Sequence record: NC_054927.1
Reading direction: 5' to 3' (one strand)
From: Escherichia phage vB_EcoM_Ozark
DNA: 64,000 bases
A program made the position numbers and the translations under genes. This document shows positions 13,336 to 37,977 of the stretch, one piece after another. How positions within the stretch are numbered: the first letter of the stretch is position 1; every line of letters starts with the position of its first letter. Under the pieces are notes generated by a model. That model worked only from the letters and a program-made list of their open reading frames with translations. It had not been told where the DNA came from and searched no databases.

Positions 13336-13656
13336 TTATAGCGTAATCCATTCTCGTACTATCTGAGTTACTACACGTTCACGGGGCTCGACTAGTTCAA
13401 CAGTCGGAACTGCATAATACCAGTCAGAATGATAAGAACCTGACCGAGATTCATTTACCGCTACATGTACATTATGTTTTGGACTAAAGTAAACACACTG
13501 ACGATATTGGCATTTACCATCTTGCACCCAGTCTTCTATTTCGATAGGTTTAAGATAATCGGAAAAATCGAAATCATAGTTTTCCGAAAATGCATCATGG
13601 TCTTCAATGATTTCGCTCAGAACTGCATCAACATCTAATTTATTTTCAATAGTCAT
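13336..13656 (-). CDS. Hypothetical acidic protein
   Basis: 106-aa ORF. Confidence 0.4.
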   Translation of the reverse strand: MTIENKLDVDAVLSEIIEDHDAFSENYDFDFSDYLKPIEIEDWVQDGKCQYRQCVYFSPKHNVHVAVNESRSGSYHSDWYYAVPTVELVEPRERVVTQIVREWITL

Positions 13657-13876: not shown

Positions 13877-14055
13877 TTAGAAATAGACTTTTCACCATTA
13901 GAATAATAAACTTCAAGTTTAGCACGATTATTTTTAATTTGAATAACCTTGGCTGTCATCAAAGTTCCATACCCATAATAAACTGCAACTTCATCACCTA
14001 CATATACCGCGCTTCCGCGGTAATCATGAATATAGTCAGTTCCTTCGAGCATCAT
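13840..14055 (-). CDS. Hypothetical protein
   Basis: 71-aa ORF overlapping neighbours at both ends. Confidence 0.35.
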   Translation of the reverse strand: MMLEGTDYIHDYRGSAVYVGDEVAVYYGYGTLMTAKVIQIKNNRAKLEVYYSNGEKSISKWKYGDCMVKLG

Positions 14056-14315
14056 TTAAAATATTCTCGCAGTTGGTCAAATCCACCAATATGACTTCCA
14101 TCAGGAGCAAATACCTGAGGCATTGTCAAGCCGATTTGAGTATCACGACCTAGTTTCGTCAGAAGCTCAGCAATTTTCTCATCATCAAAAACACCTTTTT
14201 CCGGCATAATGTTGATAAATTCAAACGGCTGTTTCTTCACAGTCAAAAGACGTTTTGCATTATCGCAATACACACATTTATGGATGTTGCTATCATAACC
14301 ATATACTTTAAACAT
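14052..14315 (-). CDS. nrdC: Thioredoxin/glutaredoxin NrdC
   Basis: 87-aa ORF; MFKVYGYDSNIHKCVYCDNAKRLL with CVYC active site, matching the T4 thioredoxin fold. Confidence 0.85.
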   Translation of the reverse strand: MFKVYGYDSNIHKCVYCDNAKRLLTVKKQPFEFINIMPEKGVFDDEKIAELLTKLGRDTQIGLTMPQVFAPDGSHIGGFDQLREYFK

Positions 14316-14316
14316 A

Positions 14317-14559
14317 TTATTCCTTAATTCCTAGTACTTGTTTAAAAGTCTCGTCGTAATCAAGACTTTGGCCCGTTTGTTCTTTATGTTTGTATATAAT
14401 ATCACTTACTTCTGATAGCATATTTTTGTATGAACGAGTTACAGCAGATTTAAGCACGCTGTATCTATCAGGAAATTTACCATGTTCATTATAATAAGCT
14501 ATTGCTAATTCACGGACTGCCTTTTCAGCAGTCTCCATATATTCTTTACGCTTGGTCAT
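14317..14559 (-). CDS. Hypothetical protein
   Basis: 80-aa ORF abutting nrdC. Confidence 0.4.
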
Positions 14560-14561
14560 TT

Positions 14562-14951
14562 TTAATCCAAAATATTATTAGGCATTGGTTGAACACTCAC
14601 AAGTTCTTTAAAGAACTCAGTAGAGTCAGGCAATTTAACCATTTCCGGAGCATGCTTATTAAATTTATGTTTACAATGACGGCATTTATATTCAAGCTCT
14701 GGTTTACGCCAGTTAATCAATTGAACTTGTTCAGTACCGCATTCAGGGCAATTAGGAACGTTTTTAGAAGCTCTTTCACGTCGTTCAACCATAGCCATAA
14801 TAGCATCCCATGCTGGAGGTTTAAAATCTAAATCGTCGCAGCCGTGAATCTTTCCACGCATTTCCATATCATCTTCCTCACCAGCCATAATAATTTTAAT
14901 TAAACTGGAATTACTTGAAGCTGCAATGTCTTCTAATAAACGCTTTTTCAT
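14562..14951 (-). CDS. Hypothetical zinc-ribbon protein
   Basis: 129-aa ORF with CPECG...CRHCKHK four-Cys motif. Confidence 0.4.
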
Positions 14952-15877
14952 TTCAATACCTCAATAGCATTACGTAAACCATTTGCTTTTGCATTAAGAG
15001 CTTTTAACAATTTGGTGTGTTCTGCAATTTGGGCTTCAACTTCAATCAAACGGGCATTGAGATATTCGCGTTCTTCACTCAGATTATCAACCTTTTCTAC
15101 TTTAGGCTCTTTTACAACTGTCTTATATGTATTAGGGTTCTTCAGTTTAATTAGAATGCGTGAACTGTATAACATTGAACCATTATCTTCGGTTTCGTCA
15201 TACATTTCCACTACGTCCATAATTTTTAACATCATGCGGAGTTTATAAGACAACGAACGAATAGTTTTGTTGTGCTTATTAATTTCTTTAGCTGTCATGG
15301 TGCCAAGATTACGTGAGTAATAATAAGGAACCTGGATATTAATTAATACTGATGAACCACCTGGCTTGTGTGTTACTTCATCAGCAATAACCCAGTCCTT
15401 AACATGAACTGTATTTGTACGATCATCGCCCGCGGTGAACAGTTTGCGAGCATGCTTAAAAAGCATATTCACTTGGTCATTGAATTGGCAAGCAAATTTA
15501 TCAGCAAATTTGGTTTCAGGAATGGTAGAAAACCAATTAGCCAAATGAGTCTTTTTAACATCATTAACAATAGTAAATTCAACCAAATCGGTTATAGATG
15601 TCTCAGATTTAATAAAGCTCGGCTTCATAAAGTTTTTAATGTTATCGTGAGCTACAGTAGAAGATAACATACGAGAACGTTTAAACCATTCAAGCAAATT
15701 GCCTAACGAATGAGAATAAGCGTTTTGAGTATCTTTACAGATATGATTTTCCTGGCCAACATATTGAAGGAAATCACGAAGAATATTATTGATTACTGCT
15801 CTGTGTCCTATCTGATAATTACGATGTTTAGTAATAAGACTGTCAAAATAATCAATATAATGTTTACGAGTTTTCAT
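14948..15877 (-). CDS. Hypothetical protein with C-terminal coiled-coil tail
   Basis: 309-aa ORF; last ~50 aa heptad-like ([44 protein letters not shown]). Confidence 0.45.
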   Translation of the reverse strand: MKTRKHYIDYFDSLITKHRNYQIGHRAVINNILRDFLQYVGQENHICKDTQNAYSHSLGNLLEWFKRSRMLSSTVAHDNIKNFMKPSFIKSETSITDLVEFTIVNDVKKTHLANWFSTIPETKFADKFACQFNDQVNMLFKHARKLFTAGDDRTNTVHVKDWVIADEVTHKPGGSSVLINIQVPYYYSRNLGTMTAKEINKHNKTIRSLSYKLRMMLKIMDVVEMYDETEDNGSMLYSSRILIKLKNPNTYKTVVKEPKVEKVDNLSEEREYLNARLIEVEAQIAEHTKLLKALNAKANGLRNAIEVLK

Positions 15878-15929
15878 GTTCTTCTCACTTGGTTAATGAT
15901 TTATGCTCCGAGCCATCCTTGGCTTTAAA

Positions 15930-16961
15930 TTACTTAATTAACTGTAAAGCTTGTTCAAGACGATCCAAGCGATTGACAGATTCTTCCCAAATCTTTTTAG
16001 CCTGCTCATATTCTTTCTGCGCTTTATTAGAAATTTCTAGAACTTCTTTATAAGCTTTTTCTAATGCAATAACTTCTGGACGAATTTCTGCCGGTTCAGG
16101 CGAATCATCAAGATTATCCATTAGTTCCTCAAGGGTAGTTTCTTCTTTAGAAGTATTCACAATTTCCTCACATTTTTGTTGATAAATTTCTTTATCAGTA
16201 GGTGAATAAGCACATTTCACTTCACGAAGACTAATTACAATTTTATATCCTTCCCATCCGCATATATTCTTAAAAGGATATGTATGAATATTTTCTACTG
16301 TTTCCATACAAAGTAATGCAGTCTCTAACTGACGAGTTATAGTGCTAGCAATTGAGAAAAATTTATTAATATTCTTTTGGTTAGCGTTTGGTGTAAAAAA
16401 TCCATAATTCACAAAAATAGCTACTTTATTTTCATCAAGCTCATATTCTTTTACGATAATCATATCAGAAGCCAAAGGATGAATTTGACGATAATCGCCA
16501 TAACATAATTTAGAAGCTGATTTTAGAATTTGTCCTTTGAAAAGTCTGAAATTACTAATCCAACGACGAGTAAAAATATTCTCAGGGTCTTCTTTATTAT
16601 TAAGATGATAAGAATTAACATCACCGAACCAATTATATCCTACTACATCTTTGGTTCGTTTAATTTCTTTCCCAAAATTACCAAGAATATCCCGATTAAC
16701 CAAATATGAAAGAAGACGAGACTCTTTAAAAGTTTTTTTGATAACATCTTTATCTACACGGCTAGAAATTTTACGAATTTCATGAATAAATTTAGTAGAA
16801 GAAACAATACTTGCATCAACACTATTGAGCCATTGATTGATAATAGAAAGAACGATATTTTGACCAAACATCGGTATAGCTTTATCATCAATAACGCTGT
16901 TGAACGATTTAATATATTCGTTGCGAGTCATATTAATCTCCTCAGTAGAAAGTAAGAACAT
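15930..16961 (-). CDS. Hypothetical protein with C-terminal coiled-coil tail
   Basis: 343-aa ORF; Pro-rich linker (SPEPAEIRPEV) followed by a ~50-aa helical tail. Confidence 0.45.
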   Translation of the reverse strand: MFLLSTEEINMTRNEYIKSFNSVIDDKAIPMFGQNIVLSIINQWLNSVDASIVSSTKFIHEIRKISSRVDKDVIKKTFKESRLLSYLVNRDILGNFGKEIKRTKDVVGYNWFGDVNSYHLNNKEDPENIFTRRWISNFRLFKGQILKSASKLCYGDYRQIHPLASDMIIVKEYELDENKVAIFVNYGFFTPNANQKNINKFFSIASTITRQLETALLCMETVENIHTYPFKNICGWEGYKIVISLREVKCAYSPTDKEIYQQKCEEIVNTSKEETTLEELMDNLDDSPEPAEIRPEVIALEKAYKEVLEISNKAQKEYEQAKKIWEESVNRLDRLEQALQLIK

Positions 16962-16988
16962 TATACCACATCCTTGTGGCGAAGTAAA

Positions 16989-18008
16989 CTAGTTTAGTGC
17001 ATTTAGTGCGTTGTTCAGTTTAGAACGTTGCTTCGTGAGATTTTTGACTTTTTCTTGTGCTTTTTCTAGCATCTTTTCAGCTTCTAACACTTCATTGGTC
17101 GCTTTAACGAGTTCATCATCTACTGCCTTAAGAGACTTCTCAATCGCATCCGCGTGCCATTTTTCAACAGGTTTAAGACTCGGATTTTCAATAGGAAGAA
17201 AATTCGCTTTATTAAATTTCCATGCATCTTTATTACCTGAGCTATACATCCAAAATTTAGGATCGTTTGATGAGCAATTAGATAAATTTAAGTTATCTTG
17301 CACTTCCTGCTTTTTCTCTTGCGTGACTTCGTCTTTTCTCAAAAAATCATATTTAAATGAAACGATCATATCAAGTTCATATGTTGTTGTATGTTCCCAA
17401 TTTCGCTCAAAACGAGGTAAAATCTTAGACTGAACAGCGGCAACAACATCCATATACTTAAATGCTTCTGTCAACTGTGATTTAAGGCATTCACAAATTG
17501 AAAGAGAATTTTTTGTATTAGGTTTAAAGCTAATTCGTGCAGTTCTATTATTTTCTTTTAACGGTCTTACTTCCATCTGAAGAGTATAACCATCAAATTT
17601 CAGATTCTTTAAGTTAATATCAGAGCCTTTTAATCGACTAGCAGTAGACAAAATTTGCTTTAATTGTTTACGAAATAGAGCAATAAATCTCCATTCAATA
17701 CGATAATGATTTGGATTAAAAAATCCTGTTGATAAATCAACCTTACTCTGACCAACGCCTTGAACAAATAGAGGATTTTTATAATCAATAGTTTTACAGA
17801 AATCGGTGAGCTGCTCACGAGCAGTCATTTGTGTAATATATCCCGCTTTACTAAAATGACGTAACCATTCACTGCTATTCATATACTTAAAGTGAATATC
17901 ACGATTAACTTTATCAGGGTCTAAATTATTTTGGCACAAAAATGTCATAACATTACGTGTATAGCTGGCATTACGAACCATATCTTCAATTTGAGAACGA
18001 GTTTTCAT
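16989..18008 (-). CDS. Hypothetical protein with C-terminal coiled-coil tail
   Basis: 339-aa ORF; linker (PSLKPVEKW) followed by helical tail ending ...LNNALNALN. Confidence 0.45.
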   Translation of the reverse strand: MKTRSQIEDMVRNASYTRNVMTFLCQNNLDPDKVNRDIHFKYMNSSEWLRHFSKAGYITQMTAREQLTDFCKTIDYKNPLFVQGVGQSKVDLSTGFFNPNHYRIEWRFIALFRKQLKQILSTASRLKGSDINLKNLKFDGYTLQMEVRPLKENNRTARISFKPNTKNSLSICECLKSQLTEAFKYMDVVAAVQSKILPRFERNWEHTTTYELDMIVSFKYDFLRKDEVTQEKKQEVQDNLNLSNCSSNDPKFWMYSSGNKDAWKFNKANFLPIENPSLKPVEKWHADAIEKSLKAVDDELVKATNEVLEAEKMLEKAQEKVKNLTKQRSKLNNALNALN

Positions 18009-18016
18009 GGTGTTCC

Positions 18017-18925
18017 TTAAGATTTAAGTAAATCAACAATTTTAATTAATTTTTCACGCTCAGATTTAGCTTTACTACTCAATCCAGATAGTCTGAAAAT
18101 TTCATCGTCATACTGTTGAATAGAAATATTCAGCTCTTCAATTTGCTTATTAAAATAATCAATTTGCTCAGAATGTTTTTCATTACTGCGAACTGGTACA
18201 GGTTTTGTAGGCAATTTAGTTAAACTGGATTCATCCGGGCGATAAATTAAAATACAACTTGAACCAATCGGGCATTTAGCACCAGACACATATTCTAATG
18301 TTCCGGCTTCTTTTAAAACTTCAAAAGCTAAACAGAGATGATGCCCCATATTAACATAATCTGTAGAGCGAGCTCTGACGTAATAATCATCGCCGCGAAT
18401 ACTAAATTTAAAGCATTTAAGGTCTTCTGTATTATTGGTCTTAAAAATCATTTGTTTATCTAGACCTTTAGCTAATCGAGCGCCTAATGCTAATAATCGT
18501 CGTTGATTTTCCCACAAATCCGCAATCATTTGATCGAATGATAATTTCGGCATTAGTCGACCATAAAGGTCATATCCTTTATTATAATTGCGAAGGATTT
18601 CACTCGCGTTAATACGAGACAACGCTCCAATTTTATTAAGGGCTTTCATGATGCGATTAGATAAACCCATTCCAGACCCGTTTGTTCGTTGTAAATGTTT
18701 ATCTAATCCAAACCCAATATCAACTTTAAATTTATCTAAAATTTCAGCATGAACATCTCTGTCAATAACATTCAAATCCAAAGTTGGGTTAAATCTATGA
18801 AAAAATTTATCTGGCTCTCCACGACGAAGTATAGTCCATTCATTCAATTTTTTATTAACTAAAGATTTAATTACTGCATTGACATTATTAATTACTACTG
18901 ACATATTTTCCTCACTCAATTTCAA
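18017..18925 (-). CDS. Hypothetical protein with C-terminal coiled-coil tail
   Basis: 302-aa ORF; linker (PTKPVPV) followed by helical tail. Confidence 0.45.
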   Translation of the reverse strand: MKLSEENMSVVINNVNAVIKSLVNKKLNEWTILRRGEPDKFFHRFNPTLDLNVIDRDVHAEILDKFKVDIGFGLDKHLQRTNGSGMGLSNRIMKALNKIGALSRINASEILRNYNKGYDLYGRLMPKLSFDQMIADLWENQRRLLALGARLAKGLDKQMIFKTNNTEDLKCFKFSIRGDDYYVRARSTDYVNMGHHLCLAFEVLKEAGTLEYVSGAKCPIGSSCILIYRPDESSLTKLPTKPVPVRSNEKHSEQIDYFNKQIEELNISIQQYDDEIFRLSGLSSKAKSEREKLIKIVDLLKS

Positions 18926-19319
18926 TTTTACTAAATATACAGAATAAGATGGAACAGACTATATAAGCACCACACACAGATTGAACTAATACCATTCCAA
19001 AGAACCAAACAATATTATCAAACAATGTCTGTTTTACGTCGAAAGGACGTAAACTTACAGTAATATTATCGCCTTTTTCTATTGATGAATACATCTCTGG
19101 TGAAATATATTCGCTAAATCTATAACCGTCTTTGAGTTCATATACAGCAATAAACGATAAACTAGACCCCTTTCCTTGAGTTCCTGTAAAGGTATTAACT
19201 ACAGTAACATCATAATCTTTATAATGCATATAATCATTAATTGCGTAATAACTATATGCAACTACTACGCACAAACAACATATCAATAAATTCAATCTTT
19301 TAATTATCAACTGTTTCAT
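18912..19319 (-). CDS. Membrane protein
   Basis: 135-aa ORF with N-terminal and C-terminal hydrophobic helices. Confidence 0.4.
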   Translation of the reverse strand: MKQLIIKRLNLLICCLCVVVAYSYYAINDYMHYKDYDVTVVNTFTGTQGKGSSLSFIAVYELKDGYRFSEYISPEMYSSIEKGDNITVSLRPFDVKQTLFDNIVWFFGMVLVQSVCGAYIVCSILFCIFSKIEIE

Positions 19320-19374
19320 AATAATCTCAATTAAAAGGGCTTAGAACCATTATACCATCCTTGGTATAAAGCGG

Positions 19375-19902
19375 TTATGCGAGTACCGTCTTTAACCGTT
19401 CTTCAAACTTCCGAAGAGTATTTTGGCGTTCAGCTCTTTGCTTTTTGTAAGTTTCAATACGCTCTGAAATGAGAGTGTATCGTTCATTTACTGATTCTTT
19501 CATAAAATCAGGAATTTCACGAGAAGCTTTAATCTCATCAAATTTATCAATAACAGCTTGCTCTTCAGCAATTAAGTTATCATACATCAAAATATCTTTC
19601 TTGATGAACTCAATATCTTCTTGAGTTACACGAGATAATTTAGATGCTTTATCCTTTTTGTACTGTTCGTTAGTATCACGAGACCAGTGTAATGTACGAT
19701 TTTTATTCGTATTCTTGTAAATTTCTACAATACCAATCTCATCGATAATAACGATCCAATTCCAACGAGATTTGTAAATTTGTCCTCCGTCAACCGTGAT
19801 TTCACCTCCGATTGAGATGTCATTAAAGAACTTGCTTTGTGCTTCTGATTTAAATTTACCATCGTTGTAATTTACCAGGTTGAAAATATCTTTAGCGTTC
19901 AT
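19375..19902 (-). CDS. Hypothetical protein with helical C-terminus
   Basis: 175-aa ORF directly downstream of an early-promoter element and GGAGG ribosome-binding site. Confidence 0.45.
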   Translation of the reverse strand: MNAKDIFNLVNYNDGKFKSEAQSKFFNDISIGGEITVDGGQIYKSRWNWIVIIDEIGIVEIYKNTNKNRTLHWSRDTNEQYKKDKASKLSRVTQEDIEFIKKDILMYDNLIAEEQAVIDKFDEIKASREIPDFMKESVNERYTLISERIETYKKQRAERQNTLRKFEERLKTVLA

Positions 19903-20366: not shown

Positions 20367-21335
20367 TTATTTCAGAAGAGTAACCTCAGCAATTTCTTCC
20401 CAACCGTTTTTGTCGGTCATAATAAAGTCAGCAAGATAAAGTGCAGTACGCAGTGAAACATTGCGTAAACGATTAACATTGACTTTCATCCATGATAATG
20501 CTTTATAAGTTTCTTCATCAGAAAGACCGCGTTTTTGCATCATGTCAGTTGAAAGAATAACATCTTCAACCCTGACCATAATTTCTTCATTAGTGTGAAC
20601 ACCCAAATCTAAATAAACTGAGCGGGAAACTAATGCTTGTAAATGTGGAGCAAGTTTAGTACCACGATCTAATTCGCGGTCAATATCAACGTTTGTGATA
20701 AAAACAATCGTTCCTTTAAATTCAAACTCACGCTCAATGCCTTTTTCTTCTAAGTAAGAAGATGCAGTGCTCCAGCAGACTTTACGGGTCTCTCCAGTGT
20801 CCAGAGCAGCTTTTAGAAGATTAAGAATGTCCATATCAGAGAAAACATCCACATCATCAATCAAAAGGACAGAATTCTCTTCACGATTATTCCAAAGCTG
20901 TTCATAAAGACCGATACCGGAGATTTTACCGTTAATGCTTTTATATTCAATGTATCCAATATCATTTGCTTTATTTAAAGCTTTATCTAAAGAATACGTT
21001 TTACCAATACCTGCCGCACCAGAGATAATTAATGAACGAATGTTTCCGTTAATAATACCATTCGTCATCATTCCCATAACATTAAATCTTTTATTAATGC
21101 GGGTTTTCATATCTTCATACGATTCTTTAACTTCTTCAACTTTTACACCATCATATGAAATGTCTGATTTGTAAACCCAAACACCGCGACGCTTACCGTC
21201 AATTTCAACAAAAACTTTACCATCTCCTTGTGCATCTACCGGAGCATTATCTGGGAACCATTCACCTAAGAGCTCAAAAGTTCCAGAGATTTCTTTACCG
21301 AAGTAGATACCCTTATTGATAGTTACAGTTTTCAT
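20367..21335 (-). CDS. P-loop ATPase (AAA-like)
   Basis: 322-aa ORF; Walker A GAAGIGKT and Walker B-like LLIDDVD; ~100-aa N-terminal domain precedes the ATPase core. Confidence 0.5.
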   Translation of the reverse strand: MKTVTINKGIYFGKEISGTFELLGEWFPDNAPVDAQGDGKVFVEIDGKRRGVWVYKSDISYDGVKVEEVKESYEDMKTRINKRFNVMGMMTNGIINGNIRSLIISGAAGIGKTYSLDKALNKANDIGYIEYKSINGKISGIGLYEQLWNNREENSVLLIDDVDVFSDMDILNLLKAALDTGETRKVCWSTASSYLEEKGIEREFEFKGTIVFITNVDIDRELDRGTKLAPHLQALVSRSVYLDLGVHTNEEIMVRVEDVILSTDMMQKRGLSDEETYKALSWMKVNVNRLRNVSLRTALYLADFIMTDKNGWEEIAEVTLLK

Positions 21336-21683: not shown

Positions 21684-21710
21684 ATAAAAAAAGGGAGCCC
21701 GAAGGCTCCC
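21684..21710 (-). terminator. Rho-independent terminator after the nucleotidyltransferase-like gene
   Basis: Hairpin GGGAGCCTTCGGGCTCCC followed by TTTTTTT on the minus strand. Confidence 0.65.
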
Positions 21711-21712
21711 TA

Positions 21713-22726
21713 TCATTTATAATAACTTCGGTGGTTTTCAAGATAGACCTTCTCAAGGAAGTCATCCCAGAAACTCATGTCTACTGTTTTAGGCATACCG
21801 TTCTTAGAAGCTTCAGTAGATGCTGCTTCTACTTGATCGACCACATCTTCCAAAAACTCTTGAACTGTTTTAAATGGATGTTTACCCAACTTCACGTCGA
21901 GAATAAATGGAGCATCTTGAAGTGGATAGACTAAGTCACCAGTTTTGTAAATTTCCAATAGTTGGAGTCCACCACGACAAGCATGACTCAAAGCTTTCCA
22001 GTCAATACCTTCATTGGCTTCAGCCTTACGAGCACGTTCACCGTATTCAGCATCTAATTTGTTCAGTGACTGCTTAAGCTCAATAAGAGAAAGCGTTGTC
22101 TGATATTTACGACCCAACACTGTGTAAAACGTCTGTGGGCCTGTTTTCTCATGATTATGGAACACCCATTCACAGAATTCGTTTTCTGGAAGACGATGCT
22201 TAATATCTTCAACTTTAGTACGACGCTGCTTAATGGAACCGTCTTCTTGGTAATCAACCCATTGCTCAGGGATTTGATTAACTACTTTCAATACATCGCG
22301 TAATGCAGCCAAACGAGAACCCTTGACACCGTATTTAGAAGCTTGCTTGCGGACATATCCTAAATAGGATTTCATGTTAGTCGTATAAAAACGAGAACGG
22401 TTGTCTTGAATAAACTTCCACACATCAGGCAAATCAGATTTAACCACTAGTTCAGGTGGAGTGTGAAGCATATCCAATGCTACAGTTTCACCATCTGCTG
22501 CTAATTTAAAGAAATATTTAAGACTGTATAGTTCATGGTCAATATCATCTTTAGTGTTTTTAGATGATGTATTGTTAGTGTTTTTACTCATGTGCTCTTT
22601 GACATTTCCGATAAGAATATCGCGAGCAGGAGGAACAAAGATTTCTTTAAAATCTACATCAGATTCTGGGGTAGAAGTTCCATAAAGATGACTACCAAAA
22701 TAGCTTTTCATTACTGTTTTCATCAT
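21713..22726 (-). CDS. Predicted nucleotidyltransferase-fold protein (Pol-beta-like GS...DVD motif)
   Basis: 337-aa ORF; N-terminal GSHLYGTSTPESDVDFKEIF resembles the minimal nucleotidyltransferase motif; followed by a largely helical C-terminal region; strong terminator just downstream. Confidence 0.45.
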   Translation of the reverse strand: MMKTVMKSYFGSHLYGTSTPESDVDFKEIFVPPARDILIGNVKEHMSKNTNNTSSKNTKDDIDHELYSLKYFFKLAADGETVALDMLHTPPELVVKSDLPDVWKFIQDNRSRFYTTNMKSYLGYVRKQASKYGVKGSRLAALRDVLKVVNQIPEQWVDYQEDGSIKQRRTKVEDIKHRLPENEFCEWVFHNHEKTGPQTFYTVLGRKYQTTLSLIELKQSLNKLDAEYGERARKAEANEGIDWKALSHACRGGLQLLEIYKTGDLVYPLQDAPFILDVKLGKHPFKTVQEFLEDVVDQVEAASTEASKNGMPKTVDMSFWDDFLEKVYLENHRSYYK

Positions 22727-34775: not shown

Positions 34776-35369
34776 TTATTTCAGAGAATTAATGTATTCC
34801 TGTACATCGGCAGAGGTAGTTTCAACCCCAGAAATATTACCATTAAAGGTTTCAACTCGAGCGAGAGTGTCTTCAATATCAACCTTAGTCAGTGCTGCAA
34901 TTTCAACTACATCATCGGCAGTACTAATTCCAAGTGCATTCGCCGCTCGAGTTTCACGGATATATTCCAATTTAACTGCAAGTTCTTGGCGAGCATCATC
35001 CAATTCAACTACTTTCTTGGCGATTTCAATTCGCATTTCAGCATACCCATCAGCTTTAGTAGTTAACTGTTCAGCTGTTCGACGATATAGTAAGCCGAGT
35101 TTAGCATGCATTGTTACATCTTGACCTTCGGAAAGAAGCTTGCGAATTTCACGCTCTTTTGATTCAGCCTGCTTATTCTTTTCGACAATAAGTTCACGAA
35201 TACGCTTTTCTTCATTAATAGATTTAACAGAAGCAGTTTTTAGATCTTTAATCTTATCAAGTAGTTTTGCTGCCGCAGCAGTATACTGTTCTTCAACAGA
35301 TAGATTTTTAGCCATAGCAGAACCAAGTTTAGTGCGAATAAACTCAACAATTTTCTTCAGTGTGTTCAT
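34776..35369 (-). CDS. Coiled-coil protein (weak PspA/IM30-like character)
   Basis: 197-aa ORF, almost entirely charged heptad-like helix (…[27 protein letters not shown]…); resemblance to PspA is impressionistic only. Confidence 0.4.
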
Positions 35370-35412
35370 AGTATTTCCTTAGGTTAATTAAGATTTAAAA
35401 TCCATGAGAGTA

Positions 35413-37029: not shown

Positions 37030-37105
37030 TGGTCGAGGCAGTAGGGATCGAACCTACGACCCAGGACTTAGAAGGTCCTTGCTCTTCCTTCTGAGCTATG
37101 CCCCG
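37030..37105 (-). tRNA. tRNA-Arg (anticodon UCU)
   Basis: Hand-folded cloverleaf: acceptor CGGGGCA/TGCCTCG, D-stem GCTC, anticodon loop CTTCTAA, T-loop TTCGATC, CCA encoded. Confidence 0.8.
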
Positions 37106-37109
37106 TAAT

Positions 37110-37185
37110 TGGGGTGACCGATGGGAGTCGAACCCATGACTACGAGAATCACAATCTCGAGTTCTACCAACTGAACTACGGCCAC
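37110..37185 (-). tRNA. tRNA-His (anticodon GUG)
   Basis: Hand-folded: acceptor 7 bp, anticodon stem CGAGA/TCTCG with loop TTGTGAT, T-loop TTCGACT, discriminator C, CCA encoded. Confidence 0.7.
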
Positions 37186-37299
37186 ATTAATACCTACTCC
37201 AATAATCAAGATGTCTTCACACGAAATTAAGAGAAGAGTGATCAGTTCAACCCCTATAATCGCGTCAAGTAGATATTAATGTGACAGTTGTCACAAATT

Positions 37300-37374
37300 T
37301 GGCGGACGTGATAGGATTCGAACCTATAACCAATCGCTTAACAGGCGATCGCTCTGCCATTGAGCTACACATCC
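37300..37374 (-). tRNA. tRNA-Asn (anticodon GUU)
   Basis: Hand-folded: anticodon stem ATCGC/GCGAT, loop CTGTTAA, T-loop TTCGAAT, CCA encoded. Confidence 0.75.
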
Positions 37375-37378
37375 AAAT

Positions 37379-37465
37379 TGGTGGGGAGTGGTGGAGTCGA
37401 ACCACCCGAGTCGCAATGACAATGGATTTACAGTCCACACCGCTACCTCTACGGGATAACTCCCC
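37379..37465 (-). tRNA. tRNA-Tyr (anticodon GUA), long variable arm
   Basis: Hand-folded: exact 7-bp acceptor GGGGAGT/ACTCCCC, anticodon loop CTGTAAA, ~15-nt variable arm, T-loop TTCGACT, CCA encoded. Confidence 0.7.
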
Positions 37466-37478
37466 TTAATTCTTAATT

Positions 37479-37553
37479 TGGTGGCCCTGGGTGGAATTGA
37501 ACCACCATCTGGCGATTATGAGTCGCTTGCTTGAACCTTCCAGCTACAGGGCC
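37479..37553 (-). tRNA. tRNA with anticodon CAU (elongator Met or Ile with modified C34)
   Basis: Hand-folded: exact acceptor GGCCCTG/CAGGGCC, anticodon loop CTCATAA, T-loop TTCAATT, CCA encoded. Confidence 0.7.
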
Positions 37554-37554
37554 T

Positions 37555-37630
37555 TGGTGCTGATTGACGGAATCGAACCGCCGACCTTCTCATTACAAGT
37601 GAGTTGCTCTACCTACTGAGCTAAATCAGC
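37555..37630 (-). tRNA. tRNA-Thr (anticodon UGU)
   Basis: Hand-folded: exact acceptor GCTGATT/AATCAGC, anticodon loop CTTGTAA, T-loop TTCGATT, CCA encoded. Confidence 0.75.
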
Positions 37631-37635
37631 AAAAC

Positions 37636-37725
37636 TGGCGGAGGCGATAGGATTTGAACCTATGAGTCGCCGGAGCGACTGCCGGTTTTCAAGACCGGTG
37701 CATTAAACCACTCTGCCACGCCTCC
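37636..37725 (-). tRNA. tRNA-Ser (anticodon UGA), long variable arm
   Basis: Hand-folded: exact acceptor GGAGGCG/CGCCTCC, anticodon stem CCGGT/ACCGG with loop CTTGAAA, variable-arm hairpin GTCGC/GCGAC, CCA encoded. Confidence 0.8.
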
Positions 37726-37727
37726 AG

Positions 37728-37801
37728 TCTCCATACAAGGATTTGAACCTTGGACCTCCTGATCCCAAATCAGGCGCTCTACCAAACTGAGCTACACGGA
37801 G
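37728..37801 (-). tRNA. tRNA-Pro (anticodon UGG)
   Basis: Hand-folded: anticodon stem CCTGA/TCAGG, loop TTTGGGA, T-loop TTCAAAT; CCA not encoded. Confidence 0.75.
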
Positions 37802-37811
37802 TAAATTAAAT

Positions 37812-37885
<74 letters not shown>

Positions 37886-37890
37886 AAATT

Positions 37891-37977
37891 TGGTGCGAGA
37901 AGTGGGACTCGAACCCACAAGGAAATCATTCCGCAGCATTTTAAGTGCTGTGCCTTTACCAATTTGACCATTCTCGC
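37891..37977 (-). tRNA. tRNA-Leu (anticodon UAA), long variable arm
   Basis: Hand-folded: exact acceptor GCGAGAA/TTCTCGC, anticodon stem CAGCA/TGCTG with loop CTTAAAA, T-loop TTCGAGT, CCA encoded. Confidence 0.8.

Follow-up and report, generated by a model that had tools for sequence, protein, structure and literature searches.

Four adjacent genes of Escherichia phage vB_EcoM_Ozark, each encoding a protein that ends in a long charged helix, raise the question of whether they carry unrelated domains joined to a common tail or are copies of a single gene, and of what such an array does for the phage. The genes lie on the minus strand of a 64,000-nucleotide stretch of sequence record NC_054927.1, hereafter the window, and correspond to those named nrdC.3 to nrdC.6 in phage T4. 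An initial annotation, made from the letters of the sequence, had described four adjacent open reading frames (ORFs) of 309, 343, 339 and 302 residues and a further one of 175 residues (nrdC.8), all of which are present as it stated. We find that nrdC.3–6 are tandem paralogs, diverged copies of one Straboviridae-specific gene, and we consider it on balance probable that they form an anti-defense array, in which a variable target-binding body is joined to a tail that probably dimerizes. The genes themselves and one function were already known; the grouping of NrdC.3–6 as one superfamily is proposed here.

As judged from its sequence, the window comes from the genome of a Tequatrovirus (T4-like) phage. 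The 4,955-bp stretch that holds the five ORFs shares 99.7% identity with Citrobacter phage PhiZZ23, and nearly all of the 741 phage records that it matches are Tequatrovirus. Gene order, all on the minus strand, runs nrdD, endonuclease VII, pin and nrdC, followed by the genes named nrdC.1 to nrdC.11 in T4; the lengths of the genes and the gaps between them match those listed for T4 and Bas37 in the supplementary gene tables of the HIDEN-SEQ preprint (10.1101/2025.11.20.689424), and the GenBank annotation of phage Bas39 likewise agrees with the gene order and sizes.

Tandem paralogy of nrdC.3 to nrdC.6

The four genes occupy positions 14948–15877 (nrdC.3, 309 residues), 15930–16961 (nrdC.4, an ORF of 343 residues), 16989–18008 (nrdC.5, 339 residues) and 18017–18925 (nrdC.6, an ORF of 302 residues) of the minus strand. 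Pfam and PHROGs already hold them as domains of unknown function, PF26897 for NrdC.3/4, PF23882 (DUF7235) for NrdC.5 and PF26899 for NrdC.6, with PHROG identifiers 1435 (NrdC.3/4), 2351 and 2257 (NrdC.6). NrdC.3 matches PHROG 1435 over its full length (E 2e-116), NrdC.4 matches the same entry from residue 11 onward (E 6e-169), and NrdC.5 matches DUF7235 along residues 1–339 (E 1e-124; 416 bits against a cut-off of 30), while NrdC.6, the most divergent member, falls in PHROG 2257. Whereas these databases keep three separate families, the evidence presented here merges all three into one superfamily, which also takes in single-copy genes of Acinetobacter, Klebsiella, Erwinia and Pectobacterium T4-like phages.

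By blastp, NrdC.3 matches NrdC.4 directly (E 9e-7). For the deeper comparisons, 37 loci around nrdC.10 were gathered from diverse T4-like phages, together with homologs of NrdC.4, NrdC.5 and NrdC.6; ORFs of 200–420 residues in the array's slot were clustered, and the cluster profiles were compared by hhalign with the last 70 residues cut off. With tails removed in this way, NrdC.3 and NrdC.4 were joined at 98% probability (E 3e-14), NrdC.4 and NrdC.5 at 91% (E 1e-6, 175 collinear columns), NrdC.3 and NrdC.5 at 43% (E 2.5e-4, collinear) and NrdC.4 and NrdC.6 at E 5e-4 over 117 collinear columns, NrdC.4 being the central family that joins the other three. All 18 pairs with E below 1e-3 were between tail-bearing clusters, and the best pair that included one of seven control clusters drawn from these loci had E 0.0096. 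The NrdC.3–NrdC.5 value was obtained after removal of P0056, a natural chimera of the two proteins described below, whose presence inside the NrdC.3 cluster had produced an artifactual first link of 97%. Hidden Markov models (HMMs) rebuilt without the family under test and run against a background of 1,860 ORFs recovered NrdC.3 at E 1e-16 (1e-8 when tail-less; this HMM lacked any NrdC.3/4 sequences), NrdC.4 at 2e-6 (tail-less), NrdC.5 at 3e-13 and NrdC.6 at 2e-4 (tail-less). In a 33-sequence alignment (A4), three collinear motifs run through the body: F-[KR]-x-S-x-h ... A-x-x-x-L-x-x-F, L-L-x-x-[AG]-x-[RK]-L-x-x-G-x-D and L-x-x-A-L-x-x-M-x-x-V. The initial annotation had pictured variable N-terminal domains on a common tail; the pairwise profile comparison that it proposed links the N-terminal domains of all four proteins, that of NrdC.6 weakly, and shows tandem paralogs rather than unrelated domains fused to one tail. 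Its more general suggestion of a diversified family with a shared architecture is borne out for NrdC.3–6 by the tail-less profiles, HMMs and motifs but does not extend to NrdC.8, which belongs to a separate family.

NrdC.6 is the weakest link in this grouping, yet sequence, synteny and structure agree on its membership. Its AlphaFold2 model (predicted local distance difference test score, pLDDT, 77; predicted template modeling score 0.65) gave full-length Foldseek matches, at probability 1.0, to proteins of 300–370 residues from many T4-like phages, and the matches in the Acinetobacter phages Acj61 (304 residues) and Acj9 (325 residues) are the syntenic tail-bearing ORFs of two of our loci (L028 and L033). 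The NrdC.5 model, built from a shallow alignment, was usable only for its tail helix (pLDDT 45 overall) and was left out of the fold search. When 1.84 billion cluster representatives were searched exhaustively with the NrdC.4-family profile, only 7 proteins were returned, and at whole-library E-values neither NrdC.5 nor NrdC.6 was reached, so the deep links rest on small-database and profile–profile statistics.

That four unrelated proteins should all finish, by coincidence, in a generic charged helix is very improbable. Coiled coils do resemble each other by composition alone, and direct tail-to-tail profile comparisons of single pairs are weak, with E 1e-3 at best, and are meaningful only in aggregate against reversed-sequence controls; such convergence is nevertheless contradicted by the profile matches of bodies stripped of their tails. 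The collinear motifs, the syntenic gene slot, the full-length structural matches and the C-terminal anchoring of the tail alignments, which score above the reversed controls, all speak against it as well. Literature full-text searches found no paper mentioning these Pfam families or treating NrdC.3–6 as one family. We also observed that a 333-residue NrdC.4 and a 339-residue NrdC.5 share one 90%-identity cluster of 1462 members though blastp sees no similarity between them, possibly reflecting a bridging chimeric member or a quirk of the clustering.

The C-terminal tail

As the initial annotation had noted, each of NrdC.3–6 has a proline-bearing linker followed by a heptad stretch of about 50 residues; this stretch is free of proline and spans seven heptads. 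The tails occupy, on the minus strand, 14951–15106 in NrdC.3 (about residues 258–309), 15933–16082 in NrdC.4 (residues 294–343 of the 343-residue ORF), 16992–17162 in NrdC.5 (residues 283–339) and 18020–18181 in NrdC.6 (residues 249–302 of the 302-residue ORF). On a crude heptad score they stand 2.5–4.9 standard deviations above shuffles of the same protein (z=3.0 for NrdC.3, 4.9 for NrdC.5 and 3.9 for NrdC.6). The NrdC.3 tail aligns as a block and bears the terminal motif described below, the NrdC.4 tail matches the tail HMM (E 4e-11) and the NrdC.5 tail has weak Pfam matches to coiled-coil families. AlphaFold2 predicts a single helix at residues 283–338 of NrdC.5 (pLDDT 62–93) and two, at residues 249–278 and 284–301, in NrdC.6. 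When the 61 non-overlapping window ORFs of at least 120 residues were ranked by C-terminal heptad score, NrdC.5 came first, NrdC.6 second, NrdC.8 third, NrdC.3 fourth and NrdC.4 sixth; the placing of ranks 1–4 and 6 within the nrdC run argues that this clustering is not due to chance. The fifth rank (score 12.0) went to a 197-residue minus-strand ORF at 34776–35378, the sole high scorer outside the run, for which the family and tail HMMs give no match.

Across 33 divergent members the linker is poorly conserved, apart from one column that is proline in 30 of the 33 sequences, and the tail that follows has 14 hydrophobic a and d columns in an unbroken 3-4 spacing. The NrdC.3–6 tails thus show the pattern by which a canonical coiled coil is recognized, namely 3-4 hydrophobic spacing over at least four heptads within a helix. 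Position a is mostly isoleucine, valine or leucine, with one a position often arginine, and position d is mostly leucine. The tail closes on a common motif, K-L-x-x-A-[LI]-E-x-L-K, whose polar positions are conserved (K in 15 of 32 sequences, E in 16 of 33, and the terminal K in 25 of 27). Between-family tail profiles beat reversed-sequence controls, which preserve composition and periodicity (Mann–Whitney p=1e-6), and their alignments gather at zero offset from the C-terminus. Published a/d packing rules allow the oligomeric state of a coiled coil to be read from the residue types at these positions, and the combination of I/V/L at a, L at d and one polar a position suggests a parallel dimer. 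The tail probably makes the NrdC.3–6 proteins dimerize.

The initial annotation had proposed instead that the tails dock on a common partner. In this account the tail, chiefly its terminal K-L-x-x-A-L-E-x-L-K, would bind one host or phage protein while the bodies bring different activities or targets. The conservation of that motif across very divergent families, polar positions included, is compatible with such docking, and in every family the conservation of the tail equals or exceeds that of the body; in NrdC.4 the last 40 residues are the most conserved part, with column entropy of 0.40–0.48 bits against about 1.2 in the body. Between families, however, conservation outside the last 10–15 residues is limited to the a/d core positions, as a self-associating coiled coil predicts, and the tail is retained in single-copy phages. 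Self-association, to which the dimeric-zipper-like a/d pattern points, fits at least as well; no partner is known, and nothing nearby co-varies with the tail. We regard docking as unlikely to be the main role of the tail; favored only by the conserved terminal motif, it can coexist with an anti-defense array of dimerizing proteins.

Function and the anti-defense island

The statement that function is unknown, made in the initial annotation, is out of date. A T4 clone lacking nrdC.5 plates neither on ECOR17 nor on MG1655 that carries dsr1, and expression of nrdC.5, an early gene, restores T4 plating on Dsr1, a sirtuin defense (Srikant, Guegler and Laub, eLife 2022, PMC9391042). The window NrdC.5 has the position and size of T4 nrdC.5 and is 83–97% identical to all but one of the full-length homologs retrieved; these features identify it as the ortholog of the T4 anti-Dsr1 protein, and we assume that it would restore plating on Dsr1 as the T4 protein does. 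The T4 study does not mention NrdC.3, NrdC.4 and NrdC.6 as paralogs of NrdC.5, nor the architecture of domain, linker and coiled coil.

Pfam, NCBIfam and PADLOC offer no applicable family for the four proteins beyond DUF7235 and no enzyme signature, and PDB searches by sequence or fold gave no relatives; a match of the N-terminal domains to unrelated enzymes, which the initial annotation had named as a result that would refute a shared family, was thus not seen. Among the PADLOC defense models the only match was one of 16 bits between the NrdC.4 tail and the coiled-coil part of BrxC. Because no polar residue is invariant in the 33-sequence alignment, these are more readily seen as binding proteins than as enzymes. 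A tyrosine-recombinase SAM-like domain at NrdC.3 residues 30–86 was considered and set aside, its scores lying below the cut-offs (13.4 against 22.3 bits in Pfam; 16.9 against 279 in NCBIfam) and none of the other 32 members of the family showing the domain. In GenBank and UniRef, thioredoxin is a common label for all seven genes from nrdC.2 to nrdC.8, but none has a thioredoxin or glutaredoxin match in Pfam, NCBIfam or PHROGs, and the only such protein among these genes is the true NrdC, encoded at 14052–14315. The label has evidently spread from the gene names, and a thioredoxin-like or nucleotide-metabolism role for the array is almost certainly wrong.

The surroundings of nrdC.5 point in the same direction as its own phenotype. 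NrdC.8 (19375–19902, minus strand, 175 residues; PHROG 2274) had been counted with the tailed proteins because it ends in a charged helix. The helix is there, as its heptad rank attests, but it has no likeness to the other tails: the family and tail HMMs give no match even at E up to 10, the best tail-profile hhalign reaches only E 0.016, and the motifs of the N-terminal domain are absent. By these comparisons NrdC.8 is a neighbor of the array, from an unrelated family, and not a member of it. NrdC.8 and bas37_0203 of phage KarlGJung share 99.4% identity; the latter is placed at the nrdC.8 position by the Bas37 gene table and, according to the HIDEN-SEQ preprint (10.1101/2025.11.20.689424), inhibits Druantia type III; that function thus belongs to a family other than that of NrdC.3–6. 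(One UniRef entry names NrdC.8 "tail sheath protein", a name unsupported by domain searches.) The same source reports nrdC.1 as a Septu inhibitor and lists all nrdC.x genes as non-essential on E. coli K-12 in its gene tables, and gp49.2 is reported to inhibit OLD (PMC13096335). In the window, 13336–13656 and 14317–14559 are the apparent orthologs of T4 49.2 and nrdC.1, by position and size alone, and their presence extends the island beyond nrdC.3–8. Based on the anti-Dsr1, anti-Septu, anti-OLD and anti-Druantia III genes and on the dispensability of all nrdC.x genes on K-12, the region is an anti-defense island, and the array holds one proven counter-defense gene.

Distribution and variation

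All family HMM matches lie downstream of nrdC.10, in a fixed Straboviridae slot between nrdC.10 and nrdC.2. Among the 37 loci, 21 have one copy, two have 2, nine have 3 and three to four have 4, the largest array being that of Tequatrovirus, the genus of the window. With only the 7 matches to the NrdC.4 profile noted above, the family is confined to these phages and fast-evolving. Two loci have split members (L003:14382-15411, 193 and 158 residues; L021:14102-15072, 149 and 118 residues), presumably pseudogenes. The chimera P0056, of 299 residues and encoded in a 167-kb phage genome, joins about residues 145–266 of NrdC.5 to about residues 137–309 of NrdC.3 at a short FN..N microhomology, with nrdC.4 deleted; its span corresponds to window positions 14948–17576, and it shows that recombination or deletion between paralogs occurs in nature. 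Two nrdC.3 alleles, 61% identical, are found among otherwise near-identical Tequatrovirus genomes: their first 60 residues are 87–100% and their tails 80–90% identical, with the middle at 40–57%. Against close relatives, the ratio of nonsynonymous to synonymous substitution rates (dN/dS) of nrdC.3–5 is 0.13–0.35, that of most neighbors 0–0.1, and that of the short nrdC.1, nrdC.2 and nrdC.7 is 0.23–0.49 in single comparisons. We count the varying copy number with its pseudogenes, the chimera, the two alleles, these dN/dS values and the scarcity of matches to the NrdC.4 profile as features of an arms race, in favor of an anti-defense array.

The retention of the slot is the basis of a serious rival, in which the family performs a core, non-immune task of host takeover or physiology for all T4-like phages and the anti-Dsr1 effect is indirect, for example by removal of the trigger. 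At least one intact member occupies the same slot in 35 of the 37 loci, from Escherichia to Acinetobacter phages, and four paralogs could mask each other in single-gene transposon screens. On the other hand, members diverge to 12–20% identity, against 61–79% for neighboring nrdC.10, and some genomes have pseudogenized or deleted copies. T4 clones with nrdC.5 deleted grow on MG1655 (PMC9391042), and every member is scored as non-essential in the K-12 gene tables cited above. Taken together, we judge a core role improbable, though deserving of more weight than the accounts based on convergence or thioredoxin.

Two side observations concern the slot. An ORF of about 260 residues, absent from the window, is present in 14 loci (including L007:12826-13614, L017:13025-13807 and L019:13209-13985), and in all but two of them it lies just upstream of a family member, adjacent to it or with one short ORF between; its product is probably beta-rich and ends in ...RLENG.TVYGSLP....YRG.I.F.ATF...DD.THAF.KRPS. 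The annotation of a NrdC.6 homolog of Shigella phage Sf25 (P0122; BFVD A0A2K9VMF6; 378 residues) adds about 80 residues at the N-terminus, which may stem from fusion to the end of nrdC.7 or from a start that was mis-called.

Gene starts and neighboring genes

Two of the four ORFs are probably longer than the proteins made from them. In homologs and in the Bas39 and T4 annotations, NrdC.4 begins at Met11 (position 16931), the probable true start, which would yield 333 residues; in homologs and in the Bas39 annotation NrdC.6 begins at Met8 (position 18904), again the probable true start, for 295 residues. A candidate sigma-70-like promoter, TTTACT-17-TATAAT with TG (16960–16988, minus strand; a consensus match only, 10 of 12 positions), lies just upstream of the Met11 start of nrdC.4, a position that fits the shorter start and early transcription.

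Between the array and nrdC.8 is interposed nrdC.7 (18912–19319, minus strand, 135 residues; PHROG 2547), which lies outside the family, giving no tail or family HMM match. Its product has hydrophobic segments at both ends and the look of a small membrane protein, and the gene sits elsewhere in the locus in phages with a reduced array. Farther along, nrdC.10 (20367–21335) encodes a P-loop protein that appears AAA/STAND-like from weak Pfam matches, and nrdC.11 (21713–22726) a member of the RlaP "RNA repair pathway" nucleotidyltransferase family (E 3e-11), with a strong bidirectional hairpin terminator (21692–21711) directly after nrdC.11; the two genes may be a functional pair. A peak of G+C content at 36–38 kb of the window is explained by ten minus-strand tRNA genes at 37030–37977 (Arg, His, Asn, Tyr, Met, Thr, Ser, Pro, Gly and Leu), a set that we take to differ from that of T4.

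Discussion

Our data establish the paralogy of nrdC.3–6, their architecture, its pattern of conservation and the variation in copy number and allele. Each protein consists of an alpha/beta body of about 230 residues, in which three structural motifs are conserved and the middle is hypervariable, followed by a disordered linker and a seven-heptad coiled-coil helix. Based on these observations and the published phenotype of nrdC.5, we propose that the body serves as a binding module that neutralizes a specific host immune protein, and we infer that NrdC.5 binds Dsr1. Parallel pairing of the tails, as read from the a/d pattern, would make the protein a bivalent inhibitor. Duplication and divergence would then have yielded several specificities, with NrdC.3, NrdC.4 and NrdC.6 aimed at other systems or at variants of Dsr1, all encoded within an early-transcribed accessory region that acts as an anti-defense island.

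Several points weigh against this proposal. A phenotype has been published for just one of the four paralogs, and the text of the HIDEN-SEQ preprint (10.1101/2025.11.20.689424) gives none for nrdC.3, nrdC.4 or nrdC.6. Gene-wide dN/dS is below 1, and the keeping of at least one member in the slot by nearly every sampled T4-like phage could mean a core role. Sequence ties NrdC.6 to the others weakly (E 2e-4 to 5e-4), part of the support for its membership comes from a single AlphaFold2 model, and the poor model of NrdC.5 means that a common fold is seen directly for some members rather than for every one. It is with these points in mind that we rate the anti-defense array as probable and no higher.

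A broader idea, which we offer tentatively and do not expect to hold in every part, is that the superfamily is a modular immune-evasion platform across Straboviridae, in which the tail dimerizes or docks and a swappable, hypervariable middle selects the immune sensor to be neutralized. NrdC.3, NrdC.4 and NrdC.6, together with the single-copy members of Acinetobacter, Klebsiella and Erwinia phages, would in that case be undiscovered anti-defense proteins with distinct targets, and new specificities would emerge as genes duplicate, alleles are replaced and paralogs recombine.

The anti-defense proteins of T4-like phages have mostly been found one gene at a time. The position of nrdC.5 in a four-copy array makes NrdC.3, NrdC.4 and NrdC.6 three immediate counter-defense candidates, and the occurrence of a superfamily member in nearly every sampled T4-like phage supplies many more. 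A variable body on a conserved, probably dimerizing tail also provides a structural hypothesis for the inhibition of Dsr1, which is poorly understood. Because the genes have long been known and one function is published, we see the result as one that organizes what was known, and not as the description of a new kind of system.

A possible functional analogy is offered by DSAD1 of an SPbeta-like phage, which blocks DSR2, a SIR2-type defense protein that depletes nicotinamide adenine dinucleotide (NAD+), by binding to it; for NrdC.5 this would be a lead for mechanism, not a sign of membership in the same family. Closer in setting are the T-even loci dmd-tifA-adfA, internal proteins IPI–IPIII and 49.1-nrdC.1, which are likewise early, non-essential and fast-evolving accessory clusters, whose single genes each counter one defense system and which vary by deletion and amplification. 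In an arrangement unreported for those T-even loci, nrdC.3–6 differ from them in comprising four adjacent, detectable paralogs with a common coiled-coil tail.

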